Shown one piece after another: positions 27,623 through 59,342 of a DNA stretch of 64,000 bases. The stretch lies in NCBI GenBank assembly GCA_028716565.1, contig JAQUPL010000001.1, positions 473,476 to 537,475 on the forward strand, in the 5' to 3' direction. Below the pieces are notes generated by a model. That model was not told where the DNA came from, did not search any database, and worked only from the letters and a program-made list of their open reading frames with translations. How positions within the stretch are numbered: position 1 is the stretch's first letter; each line of letters opens with the position of its first letter. A program made the translations under genes and the position numbers. This stretch comes from Candidatus Omnitrophota bacterium. GTDB lineage: Bacteria; Omnitrophota; Gorgyraeia; Pluralincolimonadales; Pluralincolimonadaceae.

Positions 27623-28933
27623 TTAAAGCCTTTCTATTTTATCGCGGTTCGTCTTGATGTTCCTTAACGCGTTGCGAGCATCGAGGATGAACCTGGAATT
27701 TTTGACTATGAAGTCATAGTCTACGTTCGAATGGTCGGTGACTATGACCGCGCAGTCCTTGTCCTTAAGCTCCGCAGCGGTCAGTTTTACCGACCTCATC
27801 TTGTGCCCGTTGACTTCGGAAGCGGGCACTAACGGGTCGTAATACGAGATGGCGGCTCCGCGCTCCCTGAGCTTCTCTATCACCTCGTATGCCGGGGATT
27901 CCCTCGTATCGGTGACATCTTTTTTGTAGGAAAGGCCGAGGATGAGTACCTTTGCGCCCTTGACCGCCTTCCTGAACCTGTTGTTGAGCGAACGCGATAC
28001 CCTTTCGGCCACGTATTCCGGCATGTCGGCGTTCACCTTTGAGGCGAGGTCGATGAACCTCGGCTCGAATCCCTGTATCCTTGCCTTCCACGCCAGGTAT
28101 ATCGGGTCTATCGGGATGCAGTGCCCGCCCAAACCCGGGCCCGGGTAGAACGGCATATACCCGAACGGCTTTGTCTTCGCGGCCTCGATGATCTCCCATA
28201 CGTCCACCTTGAGGCTGTCGCACATGAGCGCGAGTTCGTTCACGAGCCCGATGTTGACCGACCTGAAGGTATTCTCGAGGAGCTTGACCATCTCCGCCAC
28301 TTTCACCGACGAGACGGTAATGACCTTCCCGACTATCTGGGAATACAAAAACTCTATATTCTCCCTGCATATCTTCGTCATGCCGCTTACTACTTTAGGT
28401 ATATTATGCGTCATATAAGTAGGATTGCCCGGGTCGATCCTCTCCGGCGAGAAACCGAGGCAGAAATCCTTTCCCACTTTAAGGCCGGTCGCCTCCAATA
28501 TAGGGAGTATCACTTCCTCGGTCGTCCCGGGATAAGTGGTGGATTCGAGGACTATCACCTGCCCTTGTTTCAAATTCTTGGCGATCGCTTCTGCCGCGGA
28601 GACGATGAAAGACATATCGGGGTCTTTAGTTTTCCTTAACGGCGTCGGGACGCAGATTATTATGGCGTCGACCTCTTTAAGCCTTGAATAATCGCGAGTT
28701 GCCCTGAGCGCCCCCCTCTTCACCAGGGGCTTTATCTCGTCACTCGGGATATCCAATATATAGGAATTTCCCCGGTTGATGGAATCGACCTTCCTCTTGT
28801 CGAGGTCGACCCCGAGCGCGCCGAAACCCTTCTTGGCGAACTCCACCGCCAGGGGCAATCCCACATAACCAAGGCCTATAACAGCGATCCTGGCCTTCCT
28901 TTGTTTTATCTTTATTTTAAACCTCGCGACCAT
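27623..28933 (-). CDS. Nucleotide-sugar 6-dehydrogenase (UDP-glucose/GDP-mannose dehydrogenase family, WbpA/WbpO/TviB-like)
   Basis: 436 aa. IAVIGLGYVGLPLA. Catalytic Cys region GGHCIPID. Confidence 0.8.
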   Translation of the reverse strand: MVARFKIKIKQRKARIAVIGLGYVGLPLAVEFAKKGFGALGVDLDKRKVDSINRGNSYILDIPSDEIKPLVKRGALRATRDYSRLKEVDAIIICVPTPLRKTKDPDMSFIVSAAEAIAKNLKQGQVIVLESTTYPGTTEEVILPILEATGLKVGKDFCLGFSPERIDPGNPTYMTHNIPKVVSGMTKICRENIEFLYSQIVGKVITVSSVKVAEMVKLLENTFRSVNIGLVNELALMCDSLKVDVWEIIEAAKTKPFGYMPFYPGPGLGGHCIPIDPIYLAWKARIQGFEPRFIDLASKVNADMPEYVAERVSRSLNNRFRKAVKGAKVLILGLSYKKDVTDTRESPAYEVIEKLRERGAAISYYDPLVPASEVNGHKMRSVKLTAAELKDKDCAVIVTDHSNVDYDFIVKNSRFILDARNALRNIKTNRDKIERL

Positions 28934-33343: not shown

Positions 33344-35602
33344 TTAACCCGGAGGCAAAGTGGAGCCGAACCTCGGCGGGTTGTAATTCTGTTGGAATTC
33401 GAAGGGCATCTCCGGGAAAGCCTTGAGCCGCAGCGCGAACATGAAAGTATACCCGTGGTCCTCCGATATGTTGCATATAATGTCCCCGACCCAGCAATGC
33501 AGGTCGCGGCTGATCCTGTATTCCTGCTCGGCCACTTTGTTGATGAACTTCTTGGCGGCATCGGCCCCTGAGCCGAACCTCTTGAAATCGATCCGCTCGT
33601 AAGCGGTGATCTTCCATTTATCGGTAAGGTTGAACATCAACTGCCCTTCCAACTGGCTGTAGACCTCATCCTGCCACCTGTATCCGGCGCCCCAGCTCCA
33701 TTTCTTCCGGGTCAGGTCCGTGTATACCGTGCCCCTGAGGTCCGGGTTGTCGAGGTTGTATTCCGGGTCCCCGACGATGTTGAAAGTGAACGAATTGAAT
33801 TTTGAGGTATGCTGGTCATACGAGGTAGTGGAAAGTATCCTCATCCAGTTATACGGCTTGGATTCGAACAAGAAGTCGTAATCCCCGACACGGCCCTTTT
33901 TCTTCTCCCCGGCCCTGAAATTGTAATTGGTGCTCACTATCAGCCTCGCGAGATCGACCGTCTGCATCGTCTTCCCGACCATCCTCTTCGTCTGGAGTTT
34001 ATTCTCAAGGGACGGGGTGATGACATTCCTGAAATCAAGGGCGTCTATCGAATCGAACTGCGCCAGGTTAGCCGGACGGAACGTGGGCCTGTGGGCATAA
34101 TAGTAACTGACCGTAGGGGAGAAGACATGCCTGATGTTGTTTATCTCCATATTAAACGCGTTCGATTTGACGTCATAAGTTTTATAGAAACGCGTATTGA
34201 GGTCGATCCCCGTAAAAAAATTACCGCGGATAAAATTGCTATTATCCCCCTGCATGTCCTTGCTGTAATACGTCTGTTCAGTGCCCGCAAAAGGCCTTAT
34301 GCCGAGCCAACCCAAAATATTCGACTGGTATGAAAGCTGGTTAGTGGTATCTACCCTGTTTACGCTGGCAACGCCGTTGACCGGCGCGGGTTCCAGCTTA
34401 TTGATGTTGGCGGCCGCAGCCTGGCCGTCGTAATAAAAATTCGTCTGGCCGATCTTCAGGCTGCGTGTCTGGAACTGCACCTGAGGCAGGTATTCGACCA
34501 CGGAATCGAAGCGGTTTACGCGCGGCTGCACGAAAAGGCTCGTGGTGTAATACGGGTCTGTCCTTATGAGCGAGGCATAGTTGTTGTTGACCATGTCCTT
34601 CTGGAAATCCCTAAGGTAATAATCCTTCATGACGTTGGCGTCGGACAACTTATTGTATTCCACGATGCCGCTTGTAGCCGTGTCCGGCTGCCATTTATGC
34701 CTCAGCTGCGCCCTATAGCGGTTGAGGTCCTTATCCTGCTCATCGGCGGCACGCGTGCTCCAGGTCCGCTGGCTGCGCTCGTCAAAATAATTGAACCTCA
34801 CGACGCCGCTCCCGAAGTCATCGGTATCGTAATTGGTCGAGAAGCCGTAGGCAAAATCCCTTAGTTCCCTGTAATCTATGTTTATCCGGCCTTTCACCTT
34901 TTCGTTAAGGTAGTATTTCCAGGAAGTGAGAAGGTAATATCCCCAGTCATTATCATGGCCCGCCATGACCGAGACCGGGGAACGGAAGTCCTTTAACGGT
35001 ATGCTCAGGTAAGGGAAATAAAATACCGGCACATCCCCCACAAGGACCAGGATATTCTTCGCGGTTACCCTGTCGTTAAGATAGACGTTCAATTGCTTGG
35101 TCTGGACCCTGTAATGCGGCTTCTCCCTGTCGCAGGTAGTGATGAAACCCTGTCTGATGTAATAATGGTTCTCGTCCTGTTTCTCGGCTTTTTGTCCGGC
35201 GCCGTAATAAGTGGGCTCTATAAAAACGCGGGGGTTGACTATCGTCCCGACCTTCGTCTCGACGTTATATACCATCTGTTCGCCTTTTAGGAAGCTCCCT
35301 TCCTGTGTCAGTTTTACGTCTCCCTCGGCCAGGACCTCTTTGGTATCTGTATGAAAAATGGCTTTTTTGCAGGTCAGTTTCGCGTCCTGGTAGGTGATGA
35401 CGACATTGCCGTTCGCGACCGCAGTCATGTCCGTTTCGGAATATTCTACCGTGTCGCCGTTTATCACGACCGGCTCTTTGGTGTTCTTGTCGACTTTGAC
35501 AGTGGGAAATTTCGGCGTCGCCACGTCTAAACCGGAAGCCATCCCGGGCAAGATGAAGGTTATTATTACGGCAAAAGCAATTATTGAAAACTTACGGCTC
35601 AA
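33344..35602 (-). CDS. lptD: LPS-assembly outer-membrane protein LptD (OstA N-terminal domain plus beta-barrel)
   Basis: 752 aa. Signal peptide MSRKFSIIAFAVIITFILPGMASG. OstA-like N-domain. Long Y/W/N-rich beta-barrel region ending in an aromatic-rich C-terminus. Confidence 0.7.
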   Translation of the reverse strand: MSRKFSIIAFAVIITFILPGMASGLDVATPKFPTVKVDKNTKEPVVINGDTVEYSETDMTAVANGNVVITYQDAKLTCKKAIFHTDTKEVLAEGDVKLTQEGSFLKGEQMVYNVETKVGTIVNPRVFIEPTYYGAGQKAEKQDENHYYIRQGFITTCDREKPHYRVQTKQLNVYLNDRVTAKNILVLVGDVPVFYFPYLSIPLKDFRSPVSVMAGHDNDWGYYLLTSWKYYLNEKVKGRINIDYRELRDFAYGFSTNYDTDDFGSGVVRFNYFDERSQRTWSTRAADEQDKDLNRYRAQLRHKWQPDTATSGIVEYNKLSDANVMKDYYLRDFQKDMVNNNYASLIRTDPYYTTSLFVQPRVNRFDSVVEYLPQVQFQTRSLKIGQTNFYYDGQAAAANINKLEPAPVNGVASVNRVDTTNQLSYQSNILGWLGIRPFAGTEQTYYSKDMQGDNSNFIRGNFFTGIDLNTRFYKTYDVKSNAFNMEINNIRHVFSPTVSYYYAHRPTFRPANLAQFDSIDALDFRNVITPSLENKLQTKRMVGKTMQTVDLARLIVSTNYNFRAGEKKKGRVGDYDFLFESKPYNWMRILSTTSYDQHTSKFNSFTFNIVGDPEYNLDNPDLRGTVYTDLTRKKWSWGAGYRWQDEVYSQLEGQLMFNLTDKWKITAYERIDFKRFGSGADAAKKFINKVAEQEYRISRDLHCWVGDIICNISEDHGYTFMFALRLKAFPEMPFEFQQNYNPPRFGSTLPPG

Positions 35603-36657: not shown

Positions 36658-38103
36658 CTAAGGCCATAATAAGGCCTTATTCCTGCCCGCTTCTTTCGCC
36701 TTGTAAAGGGCCTGGTCAGCCCGGTCTATGAGCGTCGCCACGTCCTCACCGGTCTCCGGGAAAGTCGCCACGCCTATGCTTATCGTCATCGATATCGTCT
36801 CGTCATAAGCCCTGAATTTATGCTTTTCCACGGACATCCTTATCCTGTCGGCGACATTGAGCGCAGAATTCTTGTCGGTATCAGGCAGCGCTATCACGAA
36901 CTCCTCACCGCCGTATCTTCCGATGAGGTCGACCTGCCGCACGTATTCCTTCATTATCCTGGATATCTCCTTGAGGACGATATCCCCTACGAGGTGTCCG
37001 TAAGTATCGTTGCACTGCTTGAAATGGTCAAGGTCGATCATGAGGAGCGAAAGCTTGAGGTTGTGCCTCTTGGAGCGCGCCACCTCTTCGTTCAGCCTCT
37101 CTATAAAATGCCGCCTCACGTATATCCCGGTCAGGCCGTCGGTTATCGCGAGCTCCTGGACCTTCTCGTACAGGTTTGCCTTCTTGAGCTCCAGCGCAAG
37201 CTGTTTTGCGAGAATAGAGAAACTCTCGGCATGTTCCTCATCAATTCCCCGTATCGCGAGGATCCCTAACGGCTCCCCTTCCGAAAGCAACGGCAGCGCG
37301 ATAAAGGACCTGCCCGCGTCGCCGAGGTAAGGGGCAAAAGGATGGCCCTTATCGATGGGCGCTTTGAGCGATATTATCTCCTTGCCGGCGGAAACCATTT
37401 CCGCAAGGAGATGGTCGAACTTGTCGGGCGGCCCGCTGCGGATCTCGCCTGAAGAGAGCTTTCCGGTAGAGGGATTATGTATCTCGTAAGTCACCCGGGC
37501 CGTAGATCTCTTGTGGGATTCTTCAAGCAATATGACCCTAGCGGTAACGAATCTGGAGATCTTGCTGATCGCCTCCCTGAATATCCTGAGCATATCTCCC
37601 GTATCCAGGGACGCGCTCATCTTCTTGGTAACCTCATAAAGATCGAGGATATCATGGACCTGGTTCTGCAGCGAGGCATTCAGGTCCTTCAGCGACTTAA
37701 GCTCCGCGGTGAACTCGTCAAACGATTTTTTCCCGTCGGAAAGCGATGAATTTTTTGAGGCGAAATACCCGGCGTATTTATTATTGAAATAAGAGGGGAT
37801 GAGCGGGACGGTATTCAAGAACACTATCGAGGCAAAATAGGGCAACTCGAATCCCCTGTTAAATAACATCAAGACTAAAGTGAATGCGGTGACGCAGCCG
37901 GTTATCATATATGATACGGCCAACCCGAACTCAAAGGCCGCGGCTATTACCGCTATAAGGGAGAAATTAAGCGTGAAGATATATATGTGCGCCGGCCTGC
38001 CGATGCAGTAAAGCGGAGGTATAAGAGCCAGTATGAAGAATACGGGCAGGACCCCTCTTTTGGAAAGGCCCCATCTTTTCGGGGAGATATTCAGGCGAGG
38101 CAT
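36658..38103 (-). CDS. Membrane-anchored GAF-GGDEF diguanylate cyclase
   Basis: 481 aa. N-terminal multi-TM block. GAF-like middle region. RYGGEEF active site with an upstream RQVD I-site. Confidence 0.8.
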   Translation of the reverse strand: MPRLNISPKRWGLSKRGVLPVFFILALIPPLYCIGRPAHIYIFTLNFSLIAVIAAAFEFGLAVSYMITGCVTAFTLVLMLFNRGFELPYFASIVFLNTVPLIPSYFNNKYAGYFASKNSSLSDGKKSFDEFTAELKSLKDLNASLQNQVHDILDLYEVTKKMSASLDTGDMLRIFREAISKISRFVTARVILLEESHKRSTARVTYEIHNPSTGKLSSGEIRSGPPDKFDHLLAEMVSAGKEIISLKAPIDKGHPFAPYLGDAGRSFIALPLLSEGEPLGILAIRGIDEEHAESFSILAKQLALELKKANLYEKVQELAITDGLTGIYVRRHFIERLNEEVARSKRHNLKLSLLMIDLDHFKQCNDTYGHLVGDIVLKEISRIMKEYVRQVDLIGRYGGEEFVIALPDTDKNSALNVADRIRMSVEKHKFRAYDETISMTISIGVATFPETGEDVATLIDRADQALYKAKEAGRNKALLWP

Positions 38104-39587
38104 ACCTTGTTGCCTCCGTTCTTTTTGGCCTCATAAAGGGCCGCGTCAGCAGACCTGATGATCTCATCCCTCGATACCGCATCTTCGGGCACCCCGGCGC
38201 AGCCGATCGAAACCGTGACATGAGTCTCAACCTGCCTCAGGATGAACTTCTCGCCTTCTATCTTTTTCCGTACCTCCTCGCCGAGCCTCTGCGCCGCGGC
38301 CTTGTCCTTTCCGAAGAGAACGATGACGAATTCTTCTCCGCCGTACCTGGCCGCGATATCGCCGGGCTCCAGGGAACCTTTGAGCAGGCCTCCGATCGAC
38401 TTAAGGACTATATCCCCTGCGATATGGCCGTATTTGTCGTTATAGCCCTTGAACCCGTCTATATCGAACATAAGCAGCGAGAGCGGTTGTTTTATCCGGA
38501 CCGCTTTTACAATATCCTCCGCCATCCTCTCCTTGAAATATCTCTGGCAGTAGAGCCCGGTCAACCCGTCGCTTATTGCGAGCTCTTCTATGCGGTGGTA
38601 GAGTTTCGAGTTTTCCAGCGCGATAGCTGCAAGGTCGGAGATGATAGTGAGCAGCCTCAGGTCATCGGATATGTAAGCCTCGGCCTCCCTGCTTTCGACC
38701 CGCAGGATGCCGATGACCTTCTTCTCGGAAATAAGCGGGGCGGCTATCAGGGACTTGAAACCCCTCCTGAACTCGACGGGTATCAGGTCGAGGTTGAACC
38801 TGAAATCCTTATCCGCGTCTGATACCATGAGCGGCTGCCTCTGCTTCAAGACCCAGATATCGAAGATATCGCCCTTTTTCGATTTAACGGATACCGCCCC
38901 TTCCTTGCCCCTGACAGCTTTAAGGGCCAGCTCGCGGGCTTCCTCATCGACCAAAAAGAGGATGCAGGCATCCGCCTTCTCGACCAGATCGCAAACGTTG
39001 TCTATGACTATGTTAACCACCGAATCAAGGGATAATGTCGAACTGAGCTTGCTTGTCAGTTCCTTGAGCGTAGCGTACCTTACGACTTTTTCCTTGAGGG
39101 CGTCATTCGCCCCTTTCGTATAGGCATATTCGGCCTCGATCGCGTTCTTCTCCTCCTCAAGGGTATCGATCTGCCTGTCTATGGAAAGGGCACGCGTGAC
39201 CATGCTGTTCTTAAAGATAGTGACAAAGAGCCCGACGGCGAAAAAAATTAATATCTGCATGTTCATATTCGGAGTGTGGATGTTATTACCGGCGGAGATC
39301 CCGGCTGCGGCGGTCGCATTAACGACAGTGGTTATGTTGGTATTGGTGACGAGCGATACGAAAAGCGTGATTACCGAGGAGAGCGCTATGAATATCCAGA
39401 GGCCCCATTCGCCGAAAGCGACCCATGCCAGAAGGATGATGACATTAAGGAGTATGATAAGGGAGCTGATCAGCCCGTAGACCCAATATTGGACCGGGAA
39501 CCGGTGGCAGGCCGAGATTATCAGAGAGGAAACGAGGAGAAAACCTGCTATCGCAAGTATTCCTGAAACCAGCTTTTCCTTTTTCAA
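38091..39587 (-). CDS. Membrane-anchored GAF-GGDEF diguanylate cyclase (tandem paralog)
   Basis: 498 aa. N-terminal TM block. GAF. ARYGGEEF. I could not see an RxxD I-site. Confidence 0.8.
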   Translation of the reverse strand: MKKEKLVSGILAIAGFLLVSSLIISACHRFPVQYWVYGLISSLIILLNVIILLAWVAFGEWGLWIFIALSSVITLFVSLVTNTNITTVVNATAAAGISAGNNIHTPNMNMQILIFFAVGLFVTIFKNSMVTRALSIDRQIDTLEEEKNAIEAEYAYTKGANDALKEKVVRYATLKELTSKLSSTLSLDSVVNIVIDNVCDLVEKADACILFLVDEEARELALKAVRGKEGAVSVKSKKGDIFDIWVLKQRQPLMVSDADKDFRFNLDLIPVEFRRGFKSLIAAPLISEKKVIGILRVESREAEAYISDDLRLLTIISDLAAIALENSKLYHRIEELAISDGLTGLYCQRYFKERMAEDIVKAVRIKQPLSLLMFDIDGFKGYNDKYGHIAGDIVLKSIGGLLKGSLEPGDIAARYGGEEFVIVLFGKDKAAAQRLGEEVRKKIEGEKFILRQVETHVTVSIGCAGVPEDAVSRDEIIRSADAALYEAKKNGGNKVCLA

Positions 39588-49943: not shown

Positions 49944-52115
49944 TTACGGGAGGACCTTTGTCGGGAGCCCTTCGGCGCGAAGTTTTTTCGCGAGTTCTTC
50001 CGCTTCTTCCCTCGAGTTCAGTTTTCCGACCCTCACTTTATTGGATTCCTCATCCTGCAATTTTACTATCGAGGCATCGTAACCCTTCTTGACAAGTTCG
50101 TCGCAGAGCTTGAGCGCGTTCGCCTTCTTGTTGAACGAGCCGACCTGGACGGTAAAATACAGGGTCTCTTCGCGCAGGGCCTGCGCGGACATCTGCGCCT
50201 CAAAGCTGGACGGGAAATCCGACCTCACTTTCTGGTAATGGTTCCTTGCGTCCTTCCATCTGCCTTCTTTCTGTTCGCATTTGGCGATCCTGAAATAGGC
50301 AGTGGCCGCTCCCTGCGACCTGGGATACCTGGCGATGTATTTTTCGTATCCGGCCATGGCGCCCTTGTAATCTCCGCCAAGGTAATAACTGTCGGCTATA
50401 CCCAGCTGCGCGAGCGGGGCCAAGCCGCTCTTAGGGAACATCTCTATCAGCGAATTGAAATTCTTCCTGGCGAGGTCGTACCGGCCCAATTTGTTCAGGC
50501 TCGTGCCTATCATGTAGAAGACCTTGTCTTTCTCCTTGGACATCTCAAGGGCCTTTATGCCTTCGCGCACGGTATTCTCGTAGTCGCCGCTCACGAAATA
50601 TCCTTCTATGGCCGCTGTTGTTTCTGCCTTGGCGGAGTTAGAAAATATCCCCCCTGCCAGGACCATGAATAACATAGCGCCGCCGACCAGCGTATGCCCA
50701 AAAACGGAGCTGACCTTTACCGTCTTTAACCTGCCTATCAGTTCGGACGTCCCGACCAGGGCGACTTTTATGTTCTGCCTGTTCTTTCCTGTCACTTTAT
50801 GTTTTTCCTTTCTGCACACTTTTTCAACGAGGACTTCTGTTTGCCCGCCTATGAACTCATTATCCTTCAGGCCTGATATCTTATCCCGCAGCTTCAGCAG
50901 GTCCTGGTTGCGCTCTTCCTTGACTTTTTTCGGCACGTCATCCTCGAGCCCGCCCGCCTTTGCCGGCGGCCGCGGGGAATACTTGAATATGAACGCGGAA
51001 TTGAACGCTATATCCTCCAAGAGTTTTTTTGTCATAATGAAATCTTCGTCCGATTCCCCGGGATATCCCACTATGACATCGGTGGTTATCGCGCAATCCG
51101 GGACATACCTGCGGAGCATCTCGACTTTCTTCAGGTAATCGGCGGCAGTATAGCCCCTGTTCATCGACTTTAAGATTTTATCAGAACCGGACTGCAAAGG
51201 CAAATGGAGATGCTCGCATACTTTCGGGAGGTCGCGCATCGCCTTAAATAGGTCCTCTCCTGCATCTTTAGGATGACTCGTGAGAAAGCGAATCCTCTCA
51301 ATGCCATTGATGTCGTTAATGCGCTCCAATAATCTAATAAAATCAAAATCCGGCGGGTCCTGCCTGCCGAGCACCTCGTCCCCGCTGCTTCGTGCGGCGG
51401 GGCCAAGGGCTCCGTCGGCAGCCACCCGCTGAAACTTTGACCTATATGAGTTTACATTTTGACCAAGCAGCGTAACTTCCTTATATCCTTTGTCAGCCAG
51501 CGATTTTATTTCCTCAATAATACTTTCCGCCGGCCTTCCCACCTCCCTGCCCCTCACATACGGCACGATGCAGTACGAACAGAAATTATTACAGCCCTCC
51601 ATAATAGTCACGAGGGCGGATATGCCTTTCGTATGGTACGCGATATTAGCGACATACGGTCGGGCCTCCTTATCGGTCGCGATGATGGCCTCCCTGCGGT
51701 TCACGAGAATGCTTTCGACCGTCGCGGGGATATCGTAAATATTAGCCGGCCCGGCTATAAAATCGACTATAGGCAGCGTTTCCATGATCTTCCTGCCCCG
51801 CGCCTTTGCCATGCAACCTACTACGCCGATCACCATCCCGGGCCTCTTCTTCTTCAAGGCCTTAAGTTCGCCGATATTGCTTATCGCGCGGTCCTCGGCG
51901 TGCTTGCGAACGCTGCAGGTATTAAATATCGCGACATCCGTCTTTTCGGGCGAATCCTCAAGCGCCCAGCCCTTCTCCATGAATATGCCCGCTATCTCTT
52001 CCGAATCCCGTAAGTTCATCTGGCAGCCGAACGTCTTTATGTACAACCTGGGCTTGGTTTTCGATGATTCTTCGGATTTCATACGGTTATAATAATTTTC
52101 CCCTCCGCCGCTCAT
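49944..52115 (-). CDS. miaB: tRNA-2-methylthio-N6-dimethylallyladenosine synthase MiaB (about 480 aa) read through, with no stop, into a signal-peptide/TM, TPR and SPOR-domain module (243 aa)
   Basis: UPF0004 domain, radical SAM CNNFCSYC and TRAM domain end at ...TLVGGA. The continuation MLFMVLAGGIFSNSAKA looks like a signal peptide. It is followed by TPR-like repeats and a C-terminal SPOR motif FTVQVGSF...VRVG. The internal ATG is at 50675. Confidence 0.8.
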   Translation of the reverse strand: MSGGGENYYNRMKSEESSKTKPRLYIKTFGCQMNLRDSEEIAGIFMEKGWALEDSPEKTDVAIFNTCSVRKHAEDRAISNIGELKALKKKRPGMVIGVVGCMAKARGRKIMETLPIVDFIAGPANIYDIPATVESILVNRREAIIATDKEARPYVANIAYHTKGISALVTIMEGCNNFCSYCIVPYVRGREVGRPAESIIEEIKSLADKGYKEVTLLGQNVNSYRSKFQRVAADGALGPAARSSGDEVLGRQDPPDFDFIRLLERINDINGIERIRFLTSHPKDAGEDLFKAMRDLPKVCEHLHLPLQSGSDKILKSMNRGYTAADYLKKVEMLRRYVPDCAITTDVIVGYPGESDEDFIMTKKLLEDIAFNSAFIFKYSPRPPAKAGGLEDDVPKKVKEERNQDLLKLRDKISGLKDNEFIGGQTEVLVEKVCRKEKHKVTGKNRQNIKVALVGTSELIGRLKTVKVSSVFGHTLVGGAMLFMVLAGGIFSNSAKAETTAAIEGYFVSGDYENTVREGIKALEMSKEKDKVFYMIGTSLNKLGRYDLARKNFNSLIEMFPKSGLAPLAQLGIADSYYLGGDYKGAMAGYEKYIARYPRSQGAATAYFRIAKCEQKEGRWKDARNHYQKVRSDFPSSFEAQMSAQALREETLYFTVQVGSFNKKANALKLCDELVKKGYDASIVKLQDEESNKVRVGKLNSREEAEELAKKLRAEGLPTKVLP

Positions 52116-52867
52116 TAACGGACCGGCTTCGTCGCTATGACCGTCCCGAACGCCCTCTGGCGCGGGACTCTCTTTATGCTAACCGGGCCAAAACCGGCCT
52201 TCCTGCAAAGCCCTGCCCATTGTTCAAGGCCCACGCAGTATTCGCCGTCGTTCAATATGTGCTTCTTTCCGTTATCGTACATCTGGGCAAATGCCTTCAC
52301 GCCTACGTCTTCCAGGGCCGGGACCCATTCCTGCACCAGGACGTCGACGATCCGCTTCAGCCTCTTAACATCGCTATGGCTGCCGGTCGTATCCATATCG
52401 ACCTCGCCGACCATCAAGCGGCCGCCCGGCTTAAGGACCTTGAAAATCTTTTTCAGAGCCGGCAGCTTATCCTTAACATGGTGAAGCACGACGGAAGAGA
52501 CGGCCAGGTCGAAAGCCCCCTCATCGAAACCCAATGACTCCGCGCCCATCTCCTTCAGGCGTACCCTGCCGCCCAATCCCAGTTTATTGATCTTATCCTC
52601 GAAAATTGTCATCATCTCTTTTGACAGGTCGATGCCGGTCACGTCGCAATCCGCCTTCTGCAGGAACTTCAGGCTCAATAGCCCTGTCCCGCAGCCGATA
52701 TCCAGTATCCTGTCCCCGTCCCTGACCGAAGAATTTTTCACCATCAGACCAAGCAGTTCGCGGTGAAAACTGATCTTGCCGAGCGTATTGTCGTATTCGT
52801 TGGACCAACGGTTAAACCAGTCCTTTGTAGTTTTATTTGTGCTTTTTATTCCGCGTCTCTTACCCAT
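52115..52867 (-). CDS. Class I SAM-dependent methyltransferase
   Basis: 250 aa. ILDIGCGTGLL. Confidence 0.65.
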   Translation of the reverse strand: MGKRRGIKSTNKTTKDWFNRWSNEYDNTLGKISFHRELLGLMVKNSSVRDGDRILDIGCGTGLLSLKFLQKADCDVTGIDLSKEMMTIFEDKINKLGLGGRVRLKEMGAESLGFDEGAFDLAVSSVVLHHVKDKLPALKKIFKVLKPGGRLMVGEVDMDTTGSHSDVKRLKRIVDVLVQEWVPALEDVGVKAFAQMYDNGKKHILNDGEYCVGLEQWAGLCRKAGFGPVSIKRVPRQRAFGTVIATKPVR

Positions 52868-52894
52868 CTCCTTATTGCCTCCGTTATTATCAGC

Positions 52895-53266
52895 CTAACT
52901 TATGGTGAGGAAAACTATGCCGAGCACGACCAAAAACGTGCCCAGGAGCTTCATCTTGTCTATTTTTTCATTCAGGAATATGTGCGCAGAGAAGAGGATC
53001 AGGATATATTGCACGCTTCCGAGCGGATATACCAGGCTCAGGTCGCCCTCGGCAAGCGCCATCAGCCATACGACAATGCTTGCGGCCATAACGGCCAACC
53101 CGGCCCATATCGACGGCTTCGCGAAAACATCGCCTAAAAAGCGGATGTGGCCATCGACCTTCTTGAGGTCATGCGCTTCCACCGTATTGGTGGTCTTTTT
53201 AAAAAGGAGGTGGCCGACCGCCGCGAGGATCTCCGACAATAATACCAGCAATATTATCTTGATCAT
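52895..53266 (-). CDS. EamA/SMR-like small 4-TM membrane protein (ArnF/ArnE-like flippase subunit)
   Basis: Probable start MIKIILLVLLSE at 53266 with a 4-nt overlap. About 123 aa and four hydrophobic helices. The track ORF extends to 53347 in frame. Confidence 0.5.
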   Translation of the reverse strand: MIKIILLVLLSEILAAVGHLLFKKTTNTVEAHDLKKVDGHIRFLGDVFAKPSIWAGLAVMAASIVVWLMALAEGDLSLVYPLGSVQYILILFSAHIFLNEKIDKMKLLGTFLVVLGIVFLTIS

Positions 53267-53619
53267 GGCTGCAGGCCTTTCTCCGCCGGTTTCTTGCTCT
53301 GCGAAACAAAATATACCCCCAGCACTATACAGGCGATGCCGATCCATCTTATCAGGTCCACATGCTCATGCAAAAAGAATATCGCCGCTAACGGCACGAG
53401 GATATACGAGGAGCTTCCAACCGGCATCGCTATGCTCAAGTCGACCTTGTATAAGATTACGATCCAGATAAAAAAATTCAGCACATAAATAAGGATCCCG
53501 GCCCACACCAATAATGAGGAGTCGTTCAAGCCTTTCTTCATCACCAACTGGGCTATGGTATCTACGACATCGTTCGATATGATCAGCAGGAATATCTTCA
53601 GGTTCAGGTGGCTCTTCAT
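53263..53619 (-). CDS. EamA/SMR-like small 4-TM membrane protein (ArnE/ArnF-like flippase subunit)
   Basis: 118 aa with four hydrophobic helices. It pairs with the gene downstream, as ArnE/ArnF does. Confidence 0.5.
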   Translation of the reverse strand: MKSHLNLKIFLLIISNDVVDTIAQLVMKKGLNDSSLLVWAGILIYVLNFFIWIVILYKVDLSIAMPVGSSSYILVPLAAIFFLHEHVDLIRWIGIACIVLGVYFVSQSKKPAEKGLQP

Positions 53620-54779
53620 GACGGCCTCTTCTCCTTCGCCTTCCTCAGGTCCGGGTCAAAGTTCTCAAATTTCAGGAATTGGCACATCAGGTTGAAGAAT
53701 GGCCTCAGCATCCTGTTCCGGAACTTAATATAAAGATAAACGTGCCTGAAATCGAAATCGAGCCTTCTCTTCGGCTCATAGCCGGTAGCGCCTATCTCGT
53801 ATTTCTTTACGCCGTGGCTTATGCACCAATCCAGAGAATCCCGGAACGCTATGAAATAAAGGTAGTATTCGTGCGCGACCGAGTAGTCAAAACCTACATA
53901 ATAATCGATCATTATTTCTTTCGAGACCAGGCAGAACTGGAACGCGACAAGTTTCCCTTTTATCCTCCACAGGAAAAATTTCACGCGGCCCGGCATGTTC
54001 ACGGATACGTTCCTGAAGAAATCAATGGTCAGCAGCTCGAATCCCATATCGTGTTTCGCGACCATATCGAGATAAAGCCTGTAGATATCCCGCAATACTC
54101 CCTCTTCGAGCTTCTCCGCGATCTCCAGTTCGACCGGGGCGAGGTTACCTGCTTTCCTGAATTTCCTCTTCAGGTCATAGCGGGTAGCCCCGCTTAAGCT
54201 CTTCATGTATTCCTCGAAATCCTTGAAACGGACATCGAGCTCGGCAAACGGAAGGCTGTCAAACCTTGAAAATCCGCGTTCCCGGAGCGGATCCAGCTCG
54301 TTCGAATAACTCTTATCGAAATCCTTAAACGCCAGTATCGCGGCGCCGTTCTTCGCCGCTATCTCTTCCATGGCCCCGAGGATCGCGTCCATGACCGCAT
54401 CCGTATCCCCGGTTATTCCCATCCTCCCCAGCCCGATCGGCATTCCACAAATAAGGGTCTTGATACTCAATATACCCGGCATGCGTTTTTTTACGGAATT
54501 TATCATACGCTTAAGCGGCCCCACGATGCTGGTATCCAGCGGGTATCTCATTAAAAAACAGGTAGCGGCCCCCACAGGAGCCTCGCCGTCATAGACCATC
54601 AGATAATAAAAGGTGAACTGCTCGAGGCCGGATCCGTCCAGGGTCCTGTAAAAATCATAGCTTTCAAGGACATCCGGGAAGACCTTATTCCAATCCCCGG
54701 CGGGTATCTCGGATATCTTTCTTACGATATTAGTTTTTAACGGCGGCCCATCGCGGTGTTTTGAAGCCGTCAAATTCAT
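53616..54779 (-). CDS. FemAB-like / DUF482 GNAT-fold acyl(aminoacyl)transferase
   Basis: 387 aa. Two GNAT-like halves. Motifs resemble the Acetyltransf_6/FemAB family. Confidence 0.45.
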   Translation of the reverse strand: MNLTASKHRDGPPLKTNIVRKISEIPAGDWNKVFPDVLESYDFYRTLDGSGLEQFTFYYLMVYDGEAPVGAATCFLMRYPLDTSIVGPLKRMINSVKKRMPGILSIKTLICGMPIGLGRMGITGDTDAVMDAILGAMEEIAAKNGAAILAFKDFDKSYSNELDPLRERGFSRFDSLPFAELDVRFKDFEEYMKSLSGATRYDLKRKFRKAGNLAPVELEIAEKLEEGVLRDIYRLYLDMVAKHDMGFELLTIDFFRNVSVNMPGRVKFFLWRIKGKLVAFQFCLVSKEIMIDYYVGFDYSVAHEYYLYFIAFRDSLDWCISHGVKKYEIGATGYEPKRRLDFDFRHVYLYIKFRNRMLRPFFNLMCQFLKFENFDPDLRKAKEKRPS

Positions 54780-55438
54780 CTCTTCCGCCTGTTAAACCAT
54801 TTTACGATCTCGCCGGATATGTCCGCCATCACAAGGAGGACGACGACGGCCATCAGCCGTATCTTGCCGGCATCGACCGGTTCCCCCTCCACCATGAATT
54901 TTCCTTTCAGGTAGAACGCTATGACAACGATCGCGATCCACAGCACCGGCTTGTATTCCTGGCTGCGGAAAAAACGCTCGGAACTGAAACCCCATTTCTC
55001 CCCTTCCCTGTACGGGAAGACCGTCGGGAACAGCGCAGGGACCTTCTTTTTGTATGCGGCGTATTCCTTGAACTTCCTTCCCAGCATCCCTTCTTCCTCT
55101 TTTATCGTTCCCGAATATACGATCGCCATGACGGCCAGAAGCGCCGTCCCTATGTAATAAACCCTCAAAAAGATGATAAAACCGACTATAAGAAGCATCG
55201 TTCCCAGGTAGAGAGGATGGCGCACGAAGGCGTACGGGCCGGAAGTCGTGAGCTTCTCCGATTTTATCGCGTATCCGTTCGCCCATAACCGGATAAGTTC
55301 CCCGGCGGCTATGAACCAGATGCCGTATTTCAGCGACCTGTCGTCGCAATTCGCGAAGACGGCGACAAATACCGCGAACGGGTATAGAACGGCGAAACGT
55401 AATTTAAACCACCTCTTGAGCCTTTCCCTGATGTCCAT
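54776..55438 (-). CDS. Isoprenylcysteine carboxyl methyltransferase (ICMT/PEMT) family membrane methyltransferase
   Basis: 220 aa. Multi-TM. Hallmark TSGPYAFVRHPLYLG. Confidence 0.7.
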   Translation of the reverse strand: MDIRERLKRWFKLRFAVLYPFAVFVAVFANCDDRSLKYGIWFIAAGELIRLWANGYAIKSEKLTTSGPYAFVRHPLYLGTMLLIVGFIIFLRVYYIGTALLAVMAIVYSGTIKEEEGMLGRKFKEYAAYKKKVPALFPTVFPYREGEKWGFSSERFFRSQEYKPVLWIAIVVIAFYLKGKFMVEGEPVDAGKIRLMAVVVLLVMADISGEIVKWFNRRKR

Positions 55439-55468
55439 ATAGTCCTTTCTCCAAATGAAATGATTATA

Positions 55469-56392
55469 TCACGTATGAAGAAGCAGTTCGAGGATCCTGA
55501 TATTCGTTTCCTGGTTGACCGAATTTATCTCTGAGGGGCTTTTCCCCTTCGCGCTGTGATCCCGGGGATGGTCCATGCGGCTGATGATCGTCTTGGTCCT
55601 GCCCTTGGCCTCCGGGGCCGAATAATCGCCCGTTATATCGACTCCCGCGATATCGCAGTTCTCTTTTATCAGTCTCAATAAGGCCAGCAATCCGGGTAAT
55701 TCGAGCATCCCCGGCTCCCAGTTGGTCAGCGAATAGGCCGGCTTAAGGCAATCTTTATCGATACTGACGTATACCTTCTTTACCTTCAACCCCTGTAATA
55801 CCTTCAGGAAGAGGCCGCTTGGATCTTCCCGCTTGAGCTCATGCCAGCAGATCGTGCTTATCGGAAATCCCCTCATCACCTCTATAGAGCTGTTGTCGGG
55901 CACGCGCCTGAAGAAGACCCTCGTGGGCCCGTGCTCATAAGGATAGATGCGCAACCTGTCGCCTCCCAACGACCCCAGGTTCGCCGTGCAGATCGACGGG
56001 CCGGATATGTCATTCGATGAGACGCCCATCAAGACCACGTTCTCTATCGTCTTTCTCCTGAGGATATCGGTTACCCATGAGCCGCATCCCAGCCGGGGAG
56101 GCATAATGTCCCAATCCGGGTGGTGGTCGAATACGATGACGCTCAGGGGTTCTTCAAATTGCCCGATAAGGAGGCTGGAGACATGGTGGAAGTCCCCTGA
56201 TCCGAGGAAGGTTATGCTGTCTTTTTCGGCGGGTTTGAGCGCGGACCGTATTTTTTGCGCGGCCCGCCTGCCCGCCCAAAGACGGCACTCGGGACCGATC
56301 TTTTTCAGGTCTATGACAGAAGGGTTGAAAGTATCGAGGAGTCGTCTTTGCCCTGTTACGCTATCGTCAAAATTAAGAATCCGTACCGGCAA
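55469..56392 (-). CDS. Arginase/agmatinase/formiminoglutamase-fold (ureohydrolase superfamily) metallohydrolase, divergent
   Basis: 307 aa. Variant ureohydrolase motifs GSGDFHHVS, VFDHHPD and SIDKDCLKP. Confidence 0.4.
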   Translation of the reverse strand: MPVRILNFDDSVTGQRRLLDTFNPSVIDLKKIGPECRLWAGRRAAQKIRSALKPAEKDSITFLGSGDFHHVSSLLIGQFEEPLSVIVFDHHPDWDIMPPRLGCGSWVTDILRRKTIENVVLMGVSSNDISGPSICTANLGSLGGDRLRIYPYEHGPTRVFFRRVPDNSSIEVMRGFPISTICWHELKREDPSGLFLKVLQGLKVKKVYVSIDKDCLKPAYSLTNWEPGMLELPGLLALLRLIKENCDIAGVDITGDYSAPEAKGRTKTIISRMDHPRDHSAKGKSPSEINSVNQETNIRILELLLHT

Positions 56393-57821
56393 TGCCTTTC
56401 TTTAGCGCCTCCTCGAATAGGTCAACGGCCAAGTCGATCTCGCTCTCCTTGATATAGAAAGAAGGCGCGATCGTAAAAACGTTCTTGTAATAACCGCCCA
56501 CATCGAGGATAAGCCCCCTCTTCTTAGAGCCGGTCTTCAGGTTCCCGCTAAGGCCGATGTTCATTATAGCGTCGGTGAGCTGCCTGTCCGGCGTAAATCC
56601 GTCCTTATGGCAGATCTCGACCCTTAACGCGAGCCCAAGGCCGGATACGTCGCCTATCTGCGGATATTTTTTCATCAAATTTTTAAGGCGGGATACAAAG
56701 TACTCGCCTTTCTTTGGGACGGAAACGGCGAAGTTCTCCTCGTCTATTATCTTGAGCGTTTCCAGGGCAACTGCCGTCCCGAGCGAATTAGAGGAAAAAG
56801 TCGAGTGCGTCATCCCGGCGGGGAAGACGGCCGGAGAGATCAGCTCTTCTTTGGCCCATATGCCCGAAAGCGGGTTCAGGCCGTTAGTCAGCGCCTTCCC
56901 GAATACCACTATATCCGGCGTCACGTTGAAGTGCTCGAGCGCCCAGAATTTGCCGGTCCTGAAGAAGCCCATCTGGACCTCGTCATCGACCAGCAATATC
57001 TTATACCTGTCGAGTATCTCCTTCAGTCCGGAAAAATAATCCGTCGGCGGGATTATGTAGCCGCCGGTCCCCTGGACCGCCTCAATATAGAACGCGGCGA
57101 ATTCGCACTTATTAGTCTTGTTGTTGACGACCGAATAATATTCGGATTCGAAGAGCCGCTCGAACTGTTTCAGGCAGTAGAGGTCGCAATAATCGCGCTT
57201 CTTGTCGTATGGGCACCTGAAACAATAGGGATAGGGTATGAAACAGGCCCTGTCCGAGAAGTGGCCGTATTTCTCCCTGTACCGGTAACTCGAGGTAATG
57301 GATGAGGCGGCCAGCGTACGGCCGTGATAGCCTCCCATAAAGGCGAAGACGAGCGATTTGCCGCCGGAAGAGTTCCTGACCACTTTAAGCGAATCCTCTA
57401 TGGCCGCGGAACCGCCGACGTTGAAATGGACCCTTCCTTTAGTCTCGTAGGTCCGCTCCATCCTCTGCGCCAGTTTAGCCGCCACTAGTATCTTTTCTTC
57501 GTGTAAATACTGGCAGGCGAGCTGGGGCAGTTTATCGAGCTGTTTCTTGAGGGCCGCGTTCAGCCGCTTGTTCTTGTAACCGAAGTTGGCGGCCGAATAC
57601 CACATCTGGAGGTCGAGATACTCGGTCCCCTGCTTGTCATACAGGTAGATGCCCTCGGAACGGTCGAAGATATTCAACCTGTCCGAATAATGGACAGTAT
57701 CTCCCCATGAACAATACCTGGCCTCTAAGTCCAGGAGTTTATTTTCTCTTGAGCGCGAAGAGCTCTTGCCCAGCTTCTGTTTCGACAACATTACCCGCCT
57801 CCTGGAACCAGCTATAAACAT
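56373..57821 (-). CDS. Class III (omega) PLP aminotransferase (AT-III family)
   Basis: 482 aa. LLVDDEVQMGFFRTG. PLP Lys in VFGKALTNG. The N-terminus overlaps the upstream gene by 50 to 80 nt, so the true start is uncertain. Confidence 0.8.
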   Translation of the reverse strand: MFIAGSRRRVMLSKQKLGKSSSRSRENKLLDLEARYCSWGDTVHYSDRLNIFDRSEGIYLYDKQGTEYLDLQMWYSAANFGYKNKRLNAALKKQLDKLPQLACQYLHEEKILVAAKLAQRMERTYETKGRVHFNVGGSAAIEDSLKVVRNSSGGKSLVFAFMGGYHGRTLAASSITSSYRYREKYGHFSDRACFIPYPYCFRCPYDKKRDYCDLYCLKQFERLFESEYYSVVNNKTNKCEFAAFYIEAVQGTGGYIIPPTDYFSGLKEILDRYKILLVDDEVQMGFFRTGKFWALEHFNVTPDIVVFGKALTNGLNPLSGIWAKEELISPAVFPAGMTHSTFSSNSLGTAVALETLKIIDEENFAVSVPKKGEYFVSRLKNLMKKYPQIGDVSGLGLALRVEICHKDGFTPDRQLTDAIMNIGLSGNLKTGSKKRGLILDVGGYYKNVFTIAPSFYIKESEIDLAVDLFEEALKKGIAGTDS

Positions 57822-58455
57822 CTCTTAAGTTCTTGAACGGTATGAATTCTTTTTTGGTTTTCGTGAAATGCTCCTGAAGGCTCCCTTTTGCGAAAACGAT
57901 ATCGGAATGTTCGGCCGGGCAGATATCGGAAAGGCCGTCCCCGATATATATATTGGTCCTTCCGCGCCCGCGCAATTTAAAGATGTGCGTCTTCTTGCAG
58001 TTCGCGCAATGGGAGCAGGATTTGTCGGTATGCGGGAAAGTCGGGATTAGTTTATTTTTCGAGAAACGCAGCCTGTTTGAATACAGTTTTATGCCGCGCA
58101 CGCCGTTCTTGCTCAGGATGCGCTCTATGAAGAAAGAAAAGCTGTCGCTTAATATCGCCGTCTCTGCGCCCTTGCGTTTCAGGTACCCGAACAACTCCTG
58201 GAAATTATCATCGAGCCGGACCTTATCGAGATAACGGGACAGCTTTGGTTTCGTCGCCCTGACCGAGCGCATCTGCCACTTAAGGCATTCCCTTGAGCCG
58301 ATCTCCCCTTTCTGCCACGCGTTCTCAAAGACCACCCAATCCCTGTTGATCGAGAATTTCTCTATGATATCATCCAGCACGTCGAAAGCGGTCATGGTAT
58401 TATCGAAATCGAAATAGACGTTGCATTTGGAAAAATCGAGCGGCATCTTTACCAT
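57739..58455 (-). CDS. HAD-superfamily phosphatase (MtnX-like)
   Basis: 238 aa. N-terminal YFDFDNTMT (DxDxT). C-terminal GDGLSD. Confidence 0.6.
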   Translation of the reverse strand: MVKMPLDFSKCNVYFDFDNTMTAFDVLDDIIEKFSINRDWVVFENAWQKGEIGSRECLKWQMRSVRATKPKLSRYLDKVRLDDNFQELFGYLKRKGAETAILSDSFSFFIERILSKNGVRGIKLYSNRLRFSKNKLIPTFPHTDKSCSHCANCKKTHIFKLRGRGRTNIYIGDGLSDICPAEHSDIVFAKGSLQEHFTKTKKEFIPFKNLRDVYSWFQEAGNVVETEAGQELFALKRK

Positions 58456-59342
58456 TATTTCGCGTCTCCGTTGTGTATTTTTTCGAAAAACTCCTCCACC
58501 CTGGCTGTCACGGTCTTGCGCTCCTGGTCAGCCGTTATGCAATGGTAGGAATCATACAGCATCACTATCTCTTTTGTCTTCGAACCGACCCCGTCATAAA
58601 TGAACTGGGAATTTTTTACGCTCGATATATCATCGTCTTTGGCCTGTATCAACTGGACCGGTACGGTTATATCCTTAAGCCTTGCGGTTACATGCCTGAC
58701 GAGCGCTTTAAGCTGGCAGAGCAGAACGACAGGGAAATAGGGATAACCGTATTCCGCTATCTTGCTGGTATCGCTGATCACCGCGGTTGAATAGTAGTTA
58801 TGCAGGCGTTTCTGCATCTCTTTGTTCTTCACCCCGTACGGCGGGTCCTCCTTATGATAGAAGAAATTCCTCAATGGGGTATGGGTAGCCAGGGGGAAAA
58901 AGAAATTATACCACGGCGTGTTCCAGCCGTCATAGAAGAGCGTCGGGGAAAGGCACGATACGCCTTTTATCTTTTCGGGAAATTCATCGGCTAGCACAAG
59001 CGCCAGCAAAGCTCCCATAGACAACCCTGAGACCGCTATGAACTCATGGTCATCCTTGACCTTCATATAGGCTTCCTTGACCGACTGGTAGAAATCTTCC
59101 CATGTCATATCTTTCAAGACATCGAGCGGCGCGCCATGGTTCTTCAGGCGCGGGCATACGACGGTATATCCCTTCCTGTTCAGGGATATCCCCAGGCTCT
59201 TCATCTCATTCGGGGTGCCGGTCAAGCCGTGGATAAGGATAACCGCGCGGCCGTTCTGCCCCTTTAAAAATATCCCATCGCCCAAATCGCGGAACTCGGC
59301 CTTACCGGCCCGTCCCTGGTCGAGCGAAAATATCAACGCCAT
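58455..59342 (-). CDS. Alpha/beta hydrolase (esterase/lipase-type)
   Basis: 295 aa. HGLTGT oxyanion region. GLSMG nucleophile elbow. Confidence 0.7.
   Translation of the reverse strand: MALIFSLDQGRAGKAEFRDLGDGIFLKGQNGRAVILIHGLTGTPNEMKSLGISLNRKGYTVVCPRLKNHGAPLDVLKDMTWEDFYQSVKEAYMKVKDDHEFIAVSGLSMGALLALVLADEFPEKIKGVSCLSPTLFYDGWNTPWYNFFFPLATHTPLRNFFYHKEDPPYGVKNKEMQKRLHNYYSTAVISDTSKIAEYGYPYFPVVLLCQLKALVRHVTARLKDITVPVQLIQAKDDDISSVKNSQFIYDGVGSKTKEIVMLYDSYHCITADQERKTVTARVEEFFEKIHNGDAK

Follow-up and report, generated by a model that had tools for sequence, protein, structure and literature searches.

A conserved Omnitrophota gene set coupling a Fem-like transferase to a paired EamA translocator, possibly for envelope-lipid modification

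We analysed nine open reading frames (ORFs), g1 to g9 in transcription order, that fill positions 52115-59342 of a 64-kb stretch (the window) of contig JAQUPL010000001.1, part of a metagenome-assembled genome (MAG) of Candidatus Omnitrophota. All nine lie on the minus strand within 7.2 kb and encode an alpha/beta hydrolase (abH, g1), a HAD phosphatase (g2), a pyridoxal phosphate (PLP) enzyme of class-III fold (AT3, g3), an arginase-fold protein (Arg, g4), a membrane methyltransferase of the ICMT family (g5), a Fem-like transferase (Fem, g6), two EamA half-transporters with four transmembrane segments (4-TM) each (g7 and g8) and a soluble methyltransferase (g9). What we observe are these families, their conservation across the phylum, the fusions between them and their folds. 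We tentatively read the cluster, with somewhat less than even confidence, as an Omnitrophota system for envelope-lipid modification, in which a split synthase and flippase of MprF-like design would serve a cationic envelope lipid; two methyltransferases extend it here. Pfam and NCBIfam scans gave the same domain call for 9/9 genes as a preliminary description of the window, so the nine-gene set reported there is real.

Conservation of the gene set

Neighbourhoods were collected around three anchor genes: Fem (465 homologue clusters, and a genome scan yielding 66 loci, nearly all labelled Omnitrophota), the arginase-fold gene (a metagenome scan with 529 relatives, 80 loci kept) and AT3 (six contigs picked by the class-III enzyme alone, the least biased sample). 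Since the samples were picked by cluster genes, the locus counts are biased; MAG labels were taken as given. Neighbours were counted within 5 kb of genes that have 5 kb or more of sequence on either side. We found an eight-family core throughout the phylum, comprising HAD, AT3, the ureohydrolase-fold family of g4, an abH resembling monoacylglycerol lipase, a DegT aminotransferase, Fem and two 4-TM EamA proteins, which occurs in at least eight different orders or orientations. Other genomes and metagenomes bring the same families together at well over 100 loci, a grouping far beyond chance, and the full eight-gene set is present on five of the six contigs chosen only by AT3. Around 19 Arg anchors, HAD and EamA were each found 17 times, AT3 16 times, and abH, DegT and Fem 15 times each, and within the same 5-kb limit HAD accompanied AT3 in 24/24 loci.

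The Fem family splits into two paralogue groups, A and B, with 33% identity between them. Near the 12 group-B genes we counted EamA, DegT and Arg 12 times each, AT3 11 times and abH 10 times, whereas the 36 genes of group A, to which g6 belongs, had EamA in 28 cases, abH in 14, AT3 and HAD in nine each, ICMT and DegT in three each and Arg in two. In these 28 and 12 cases two EamA genes stand beside Fem, the g7-type gene following it, and the abH genes are homologues of g1 near Fem or AT3. According to tblastn searches with the window proteins, Fem is followed by two EamA genes in most Fem-anchored loci; abH, HAD and AT3 are adjacent, on the same or convergent strand, in about a quarter of these loci, and other loci commonly show a sensor histidine kinase, in many cases with abH after it. 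Recurrent modules of the Arg-anchored loci are HAD-AT3-Arg, abH with a DegT/DnrJ/EryC1 aminotransferase, and Fem-EamA-EamA. Gene linkage is kept in many relatives and no gene reaches equivalog level, which supports the preliminary view of a conserved, functionally coupled cluster over that of unrelated, well-assigned orthologs in no conserved order.

The nine-gene operon suggested at the same time does not hold up as a conserved unit, as the exact arrangement is confined to this species-level lineage. The closest relatives (L009-L011, 77-95% identity) have the order abH-HAD-AT3-ICMT-(methyltransferase)-Fem-EamA-EamA-DegT, without the arginase-fold gene. Both methyltransferases are lineage-specific additions to the conserved set: g5 has homologues among the related loci only in L009-L011, L062 and L139, mostly close relatives, and g9 has a homologue at the same position only within the same species, besides a 29% identical methyltransferase after the EamA pair in L026. 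DegT is absent from g1-g9 though widely conserved elsewhere, and the window's three DegT genes sit in a distant sugar cluster. The window locus is an unusual hybrid, in which a group-A Fem module is joined on one strand to abH-HAD-AT3-Arg, with two methyltransferases and without DegT.

Both Fem groups occur in one genome on the 1.19-Mb contig CAWDSS010000010.1 (L037, L075), about 60 kb apart and each with its own EamA pair; HAD-AT3-Arg-abH-DegT stands beside the group-B copy only. A ThiI-like PP-loop protein and an AmmeMemoRadiSam-type radical S-adenosylmethionine (SAM) enzyme are persistently encoded upstream of HAD (L075, L077, L112, L113, L121, L123, L138, L143, L154, L158, L160). These two genes and PncA, upstream in many loci, were judged to be syntenic housekeeping neighbours. 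The Fem-anchored loci had suggested that g4 is unique to this genome, which was overturned by the AT3- and Arg-anchored searches.

Transferase, translocator and accessory enzymes

Gene fusions give evidence of a coupling between transferase and translocator. We searched 1.84 billion representative proteins with a profile and obtained 397 Fem-family clusters at E <= 1e-30, of which the best 150 were examined. Among these, in-frame Fem-EamA fusions occur in seven independent 50%-identity clusters (P0361, P0366, P0425, P0426, P0450, P0469, P0481), with the EamA half-transporter C-terminal to Fem, and in P0361 the junction corresponds to the g6 C-terminus running into the g7 N-terminus. One further cluster (P0451) carries an abH-Fem fusion. 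These in-frame fusions show that the transferase can be expected to work physically attached to a 4-TM translocator and in one pathway with the hydrolase. A few Fem-EamA fusions could be frameshift artefacts of the 4-nucleotide (nt) gene overlap; this is unlikely as a general explanation because the seven clusters stand at very different divergence. Three Fem-family representatives in the same sample (P0435, P0467, P0505) bear PilZ, a receptor domain for cyclic di-GMP. The window itself encodes a GAF-GGDEF diguanylate cyclase (Table 1), which may be relevant given these PilZ-fused relatives.

Four transmembrane segments each were predicted for g7 and g8 and several for g5; the remaining genes have none that is convincing, and g6 has none. 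The best NCBIfam matches of g7 and g8 are ArnE and ArnF, under the cutoffs (for g7, E = 8.8e-11 and 3.9e-10, respectively).

The AlphaFold2 (AF2) model of g6 (predicted local distance difference test, pLDDT, 86.4) consists of two tandem GNAT domains. Its top Foldseek matches are all aminoacyl-tRNA-dependent, namely FemX (E 7e-14), Sbb17/Sba18, FemA and the synthase domain of MprF, at TM-scores of only 0.5-0.6; soluble domains of MprF match at E 4e-11 to 1e-9. In transferases of the tRNA-dependent Fem class, GNAT domain 2 bears a positively charged helix that binds tRNA, and one Lys is essential (FemX K305, DhpH K329). In g6, an invariant basic helix (residues 196-211, SGATRYDLKRKFRKAG, net charge +5) opens GNAT domain 2, and the invariant K337 lies within YEPKRRL of the C-terminal GNAT domain, so that both features share a domain with their counterparts, a correspondence at the level of domains. 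By hydrophobic moment, no segment of g6 is more amphipathic than its C-terminal helix, which is nearly invariant. Pfam gave no DUF2156 match in g6. Within our reading of the cluster as an envelope-lipid system, an aminoacyl-tRNA donor is only slightly favoured over an acyl-thioester donor. Our literature search on DUF482/COG3146 and on Omnitrophota lipids found no functional characterisation, and the third ornithine-lipid pathway (OlsH) proved unrelated.

Four soluble enzymes precede this module. The closest relatives of g1 are a bacterial monoacylglycerol lipase and the carboxylesterase Est30 (PDB sequence matches 4lhe/3rli/8hea, E 1e-27 to 1e-30), and its nucleophile motif GLSMG is present. 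g2 has a DFDNT motif and scores 106.8 bits with TIGR01489 (cutoff 81.55); it is similar to MtnX and to phosphoserine phosphatases (PDB 2fea, E 2e-12). We rejected a role as the MtnX of methionine salvage, for which the equivalogs score 67.7 against 303 and 85.9 against 292 bits; none of the related loci contains mtn genes.

The g3 family is 74-80% identical across Omnitrophota, and over 120 homologue clusters reach 74% identity or more. Alignment with its homologues shows that g3 keeps the PLP-binding Lys (FGKAL), a motif found in 107 of 120 family members. At the position of the carboxylate-binding Arg of 9wqz, 7vno and 9wrf, however, g3 has Thr, and the alternative BioA-type position is occupied by Val instead of Arg; the Thr-bearing motif NVFT[IL]APS[FL] occurs in 112 of the 120 homologues (P0121-P0240). 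Because this Arg is replaced family-wide, g3 may not be an ordinary transaminase, and PLP chemistry other than transamination is possible. Assignments as ornithine aminotransferase (183.8 bits against a cutoff of 378) and as ArgD or GABA aminotransferase (NCBIfam scores far under the equivalog cutoffs) were discarded, the co-substrate Arg being gone as well. The family also has SSN in place of the GGN that follows the HxTF motif of related enzymes.

The arginase-fold protein g4 has intact metal-ligand motifs (GSGDxHH, DxHxD, DKD) with invariant ligands H69/H70, D89-x-H91-x-D93 and D212-x-D214. Its AF2 model (pLDDT 95.6) has as top Foldseek matches ureohydrolases without exception, at 13-18% identity, and its family comprises 963 proteins. 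With a TIGR01230 score of 20.7 bits against a cutoff of 174.3 and this low identity to solved ureohydrolases, g4 was not accepted as an orthologue of agmatinase or arginase proper.

For the membrane methyltransferase g5, the best NCBIfam models are isoprenylcysteine methyltransferase (51.6 against 160 bits, 1e-13) and then LmtA, the lipid A 1-phosphate methyltransferase of Leptospira (49.5 against 325 bits, 4.7e-13), both under cutoff; 4a2n and 8xku match in the PDB. g5 belongs to the same membrane methyltransferase family as LmtA and ICMT and shares the motifs RHPxYxG and EE with them, but its score shows that it is not an LmtA orthologue.

A possible envelope-lipid pathway and its rivals

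Sequence, predicted structure and gene context tentatively suggest a lipid substrate, its donor, a transport direction and a sequence of reactions, as follows. g6 would act at the cytoplasmic face of the inner membrane on a membrane-associated acceptor, to which it would transfer the aminoacyl group of an aminoacyl-tRNA or, less likely, the acyl group of a thioester, and g7 and g8 would form a heterodimeric translocator carrying the product to the outer leaflet. g2, g3 and g4 would make or trim an amine-bearing head group, g4 possibly by converting a guanidino or arginyl group into an ornithine-type amine. g1 would act on an ester of the same pathway, and g5 and g9 would cap the product by methylation in this genome only. 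The overall role might be a remodelling of envelope charge or structure, possibly tied to lipid A; in Vibrio, lipid A carries glycine aminoacylation, and LmtA and PagL are precedents as well. We favour a lipid or membrane substrate because of the Fem-EamA fusions, the amphipathic C-terminal helix of g6 and the links to PagL, FabF and ICMT. Genes for outer-membrane beta-barrels of the PagL family, which are lipid A 3-O-deacylases (PF09411, 54-74 bits), stand directly beside the cluster in eight relatives, though not always in the same place, a bona fide FabF adjoins it in about 10 loci, and sensor kinases adjoin it in about 20.

The preliminary description had proposed a pathway attaching an amino-compound to a lipid or envelope acceptor, which is still the best reading as far as a membrane or envelope amino-compound is concerned. 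Its option of a methylated lipid-linked sugar finds no support, with no recurrent glycosyltransferase and no ArnC-like or ArnT-like gene in about 150 related loci; the ornithine- or arginine-derived aminolipid that it also named is a candidate product. In a more specific version, a Fem-like enzyme on or fused to a split flippase of the drug/metabolite transporter (DMT) superfamily would decorate an envelope lipid with arginine in a tRNA-dependent, ribosome-independent step, the ureohydrolase would convert this to ornithine, and PLP-dependent and methyl editing would follow. We consider this version distinctly improbable. If true, such an arginine-to-ornithine route would represent lipid aminoacylation by machinery of a new class, arrived at convergently with MprF, with lipid A or an outer-membrane lipid as a possible target.

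Several points weigh against a lipid-modifying system altogether. Its product, lipid and transport are deduced from the genes of an uncultured phylum, and the roles proposed for g2, g3 and g4 are not compelling, g3 lacking the Arg expected of a transaminase. PagL, FabF and kinase genes are adjacent in a minority of loci and do not adjoin the cluster in this window, which has no PagL-family gene. Neither single-sequence nor profile searches gave a sequence-level match of the Fem family to any solved structure, and the fusion of an abH to the transferase argues against a simple homeostasis of synthase versus hydrolase. As to the donor, acyl-CoA-dependent tandem GNATs also match the g6 model, with weaker E-values and similar TM-scores; an invariant Gly-rich loop, CGMPxGxGRxG, at the beta4-alpha3 junction of GNAT domain 1 seems to fit, and so leaves open, an acyl-thioester donor, as does P0435, a fusion of PilZ, alpha-oxoamine synthase (Aminotran_1_2) and Fem. 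As to the translocator, g7 and g8 reach less than half of the Arn family cutoffs (ArnE 42 against 92 bits, ArnF 40/38.5 against 99 bits), and pairs of DMT or SMR type also export soluble cations.

The last point leads to a soluble product. The cluster could make and export a cationic metabolite such as a polyamine, an amine derived from a guanidino compound or an amino-alcohol that carries an aminoacyl or acyl group, with Fem as the (amino)acylating enzyme and the EamA pair as the exporter; we consider this unlikely, though the most probable of the rivals. The PLP enzymes, the phosphatase and the ureohydrolase would build the amine, all enzymes but g5 are soluble, and the invariant core holds no lipid-specific enzyme. 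Sbb17/Sba18, among the closest structural matches of g6, act on a soluble amine, and aminoacyl-tRNA transferases of GNAT fold are common in natural-product pathways (streptothricin-type, dehydrophos, pacidamycin). The DMT superfamily includes many small-molecule exporters, and one of the EamA fusion partners also matches the SMR family PF00893; MdtIJ, a 4-TM SMR pair, exports spermidine. Fusion of a transferase to a half-transporter and an amphipathic C-terminal helix are, however, more typical of enzymes with membrane substrates, the associations with PagL, FabF and ICMT point to lipids, and a phylum-wide conservation with the identity seen for g3 would be unusual for secondary metabolism.

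If the donor were acyl-ACP (acyl carrier protein) or acyl-CoA, Fem would be an N-acyltransferase (COG3146) whose substrate, an amine supplied by the PLP enzymes, the phosphatase and the ureohydrolase, would become a phosphorus-free ornithine- or ceramide-like lipid that is flipped and, here, methylated. This is essentially the idea of the preliminary description, and we consider it rather unlikely. The Joint Genome Institute (JGI) names homologues of g6 N-acyltransferases, and N-myristoyltransferase joins the acyl-CoA tandem GNATs among the Foldseek matches. The Gly-rich loop sits where GNATs bind pyrophosphate, the alpha-oxoamine synthase fused to Fem in P0435 recalls the sequence from serine palmitoyltransferase to ceramide synthase, FabF is a neighbour, and in L004 a solitary Fem has an OlsB/OlsA-like gene pair at a distance of 5 kb. 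Yet the top-ranked structural neighbours of g6 are all tRNA-dependent, its C-terminal GNAT domain lacks the canonical Q/RxxGxG/A motif, the conserved core has no O-acyltransferase of OlsA type, and no aminolipid synthase in NCBIfam is matched at equivalog level.

The ArnE/ArnF matches of g7 and g8 raise a third option, in which a nucleotide-sugar would be aminated (by DegT in relatives), N-modified and placed on undecaprenyl phosphate; g7 and g8 would then flip it for attachment to an envelope acceptor such as lipid A. DegT belongs to the conserved set, with ArnB among its PDB and NCBIfam matches (under cutoff), PagL and two-component kinases are neighbours, and one locus has a GT-C enzyme of GT87 type at a distance of 2 kb. 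We nonetheless regard such a lipid-linked sugar as highly unlikely because no glycosyltransferase recurs beside the cluster: among the recurrent neighbour families of about 150 loci there is neither a glycosyltransferase nor a homologue of ArnA, ArnC, ArnD or ArnT, and for this reason it was rejected as the main model. Nor does g1-g9 contain DegT, and the ArnE/F scores stay below half of their cutoffs.

As an envelope-lipid system, the cluster would be most like MprF in its logic of synthase, flippase and esterase, built from unrelated membrane parts and failing the features of MprF membership. The two share a double-GNAT synthase, its coupling (in relatives of the cluster, its fusion) to a dedicated membrane translocator, ties to stress-sensing kinases and a hydrolase encoded alongside; the esterases AhyD, VirJ and PesT, comparable to g1, are encoded in operons with aminoacyl-lipid synthases. 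In contrast to MprF, with its large N-terminal flippase domain, g6 has no DUF2156, and the translocator consists of two 4-TM DMT/EamA subunits, C-terminal in the fusions. The cluster furthermore has methyltransferases, PLP enzymes, a ureohydrolase and a HAD phosphatase that MprF lacks, and it belongs to a diderm host, PagL genes being among its neighbours; its donor and acceptor are putative.

Likenesses to other systems are more partial. FemX/FemABX, Sbb17/Sba18/Orf11, DhpH/DhpK, PacB and VlmA provide the best structural matches and the Pfam families of g6 (FemAB_like, Acetyltransf_6), and have two GNAT domains as it does; its basic helix opening domain 2 and its invariant Lys near the C-terminus are putative counterparts of theirs. 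However, identity to g6 is only 12-17%, the cluster has no nearby genes for peptidoglycan precursors or antibiotic pathways, and it is coupled to a membrane translocator. The Arn system (PmrHFIJKLM), which adds 4-amino-4-deoxy-L-arabinose (L-Ara4N) to lipid A, has a similarly small paired 4-TM translocator with subunits of about 110-130 aa, but a different enzyme set. g4 shares its fold and all metal-ligand motifs with agmatinase, proclavaminate amidinohydrolase and guanidinase, differing in its low identity and in the linkage of its family to a HAD phosphatase (17/19) and an atypical class-III PLP enzyme (16/19). The peptide arginase OspR is likewise a ureohydrolase acting on embedded or substituted guanidines. 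No described system matches the cluster, which would belong to a known kind of system, envelope lipid modification, with putative chemistry, and we found no paper on these families or on the cluster, in agreement with the preliminary description, which had recognised no characterised operon.

The uncultured phylum Omnitrophota is widespread and consists mostly of ultra-small bacteria that may depend on hosts, and the cluster is among its most conserved accessory gene sets. If our model is true, it would represent a second, independently assembled coupling of synthase and flippase for modifying membrane charge, in which a split DMT translocator would do the work of the MprF flippase domain and the accessory chemistry of a ureohydrolase and an atypical PLP enzyme would be new. 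Its function would bear on the large 'hypothetical' families of ureohydrolase-like and Fem-like proteins counted above.

The locus and its surroundings

The junctions from g1 to g9 measure -1, -53, -20, +30, -4, -4, -4 and +27 nt, so that genes overlap at six of eight junctions, by 1-4 nt at four of them (including the g5 stop and g6 start), and the largest gap is 30 nt. A strong ribosome-binding site of its own precedes g9. Annotated starts are 57791 for g3 (472 aa) and 53266 for g8 (NCBI gene call). A scan for promoters and terminators found no recognisable operon boundaries around the block; its best hairpin (52920-52945) lies within the g8 coding sequence, has a weak T tract and is not a terminator boundary. 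An Rfam scan of the window gave no matches. The nine genes are embedded in a long same-strand string that runs from rsmB/trmH-like genes to miaB-miaA-hflX-hrcA-grpE-dnaK, starting 36 nt past the rsmB-like gene and ending -1 to +32 nt ahead of miaB. Identical proteins are encoded on contig JAQTMX010000004.1 of MAG GCA_028714115.1, on a second MAG and in one Logan assembly, and close NCBI homologues carry the name Candidatus Omnitrophota.

Table 1. Genes of the cluster, PagL-family neighbours in related loci and other features of the window.
Feature	Sequence	Position	Strand	Description
g1	window	58455..59342	-	Hydrolase_4 alpha/beta hydrolase (abH), cytoplasmic (Pfam)
g2	window	57739..58455	-	HAD-IB phosphatase, MtnX/PHOSPHO1-like subfamily (TIGR01489, PF06888)
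g3	window	56373..57791	-	class-III fold PLP enzyme AT3 (Aminotran_3, PF00202, 260 bits)
g4	window	55469..56392	-	divergent ureohydrolase (arginase/agmatinase fold), TTG start; Arginase Pfam 30.5 vs cutoff 22 bits
g5	window	54776..55438	-	polytopic ICMT/PEMT-family membrane methyltransferase (Pfam ICMT 34.5 vs cutoff 24 bits)
g6	window	53616..54779	-	FemAB_like + Acetyltransf_6 double-GNAT transferase, paralogue group A (Pfam)
g7	window	53263..53619	-	4-TM EamA/DMT half-transporter, subunit 1, 118 aa (Pfam EamA)
g8	window	52895..53266	-	4-TM EamA/DMT half-transporter, subunit 2, 123 aa; 27% identical to g7
g9	window	52115..52867	-	soluble class I SAM methyltransferase (Methyltransf_11/25, UbiE-like; Pfam, NCBIfam)
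PagL-family gene	L076	6685-7323
PagL-family gene	L110	5112-5762
PagL-family gene	L122	~6220-6570
PagL-family gene	L143	14988-15572
PagL-family gene	L147	4298-4909
PagL-family gene	L148	3122-3910
PagL-family gene	L157	14538-15149
PagL-family gene	L159	12106-12630
DegT aminotransferase	window	5478-6848	-	sugar cluster
UDP-GlcNAc 2-epimerase	window	9411-10565	-	sugar cluster
CBS-nucleotidyltransferase	window	12997-14067	-	sugar cluster
DegT aminotransferase	window	14060-15226	-	sugar cluster
B12-radical SAM enzyme	window	18464-20005	-	sugar cluster
AsnB-like amidotransferase	window	21859-23721	-	sugar cluster
DegT aminotransferase	window	25551-26672	-	sugar cluster
UDP-sugar dehydrogenase	window	27623-28933	-	sugar cluster
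ORF	window	33344-35602	-	752 aa
Diguanylate cyclase	window	38091-39587	-	GAF-GGDEF
miaB	window	49944-52115	-	UPF0004 + radical SAM

Distant from g1-g9, the minus strand of the window carries a large nucleotide-sugar or surface-polysaccharide cluster (about 2100-31600), and the 752-aa ORF listed after it has no Pfam match at E <= 1e-5. The miaB gene downstream of g9 encodes, beyond its enzyme domains, a C-terminal extension with a hydrophobic segment, TPR/YfiO (BamD-like) repeats and a SPOR peptidoglycan-binding domain. This fusion, also present in the relative L009 (725 aa), is odd in that it joins a cytoplasmic tRNA-modifying enzyme to modules of periplasmic type.

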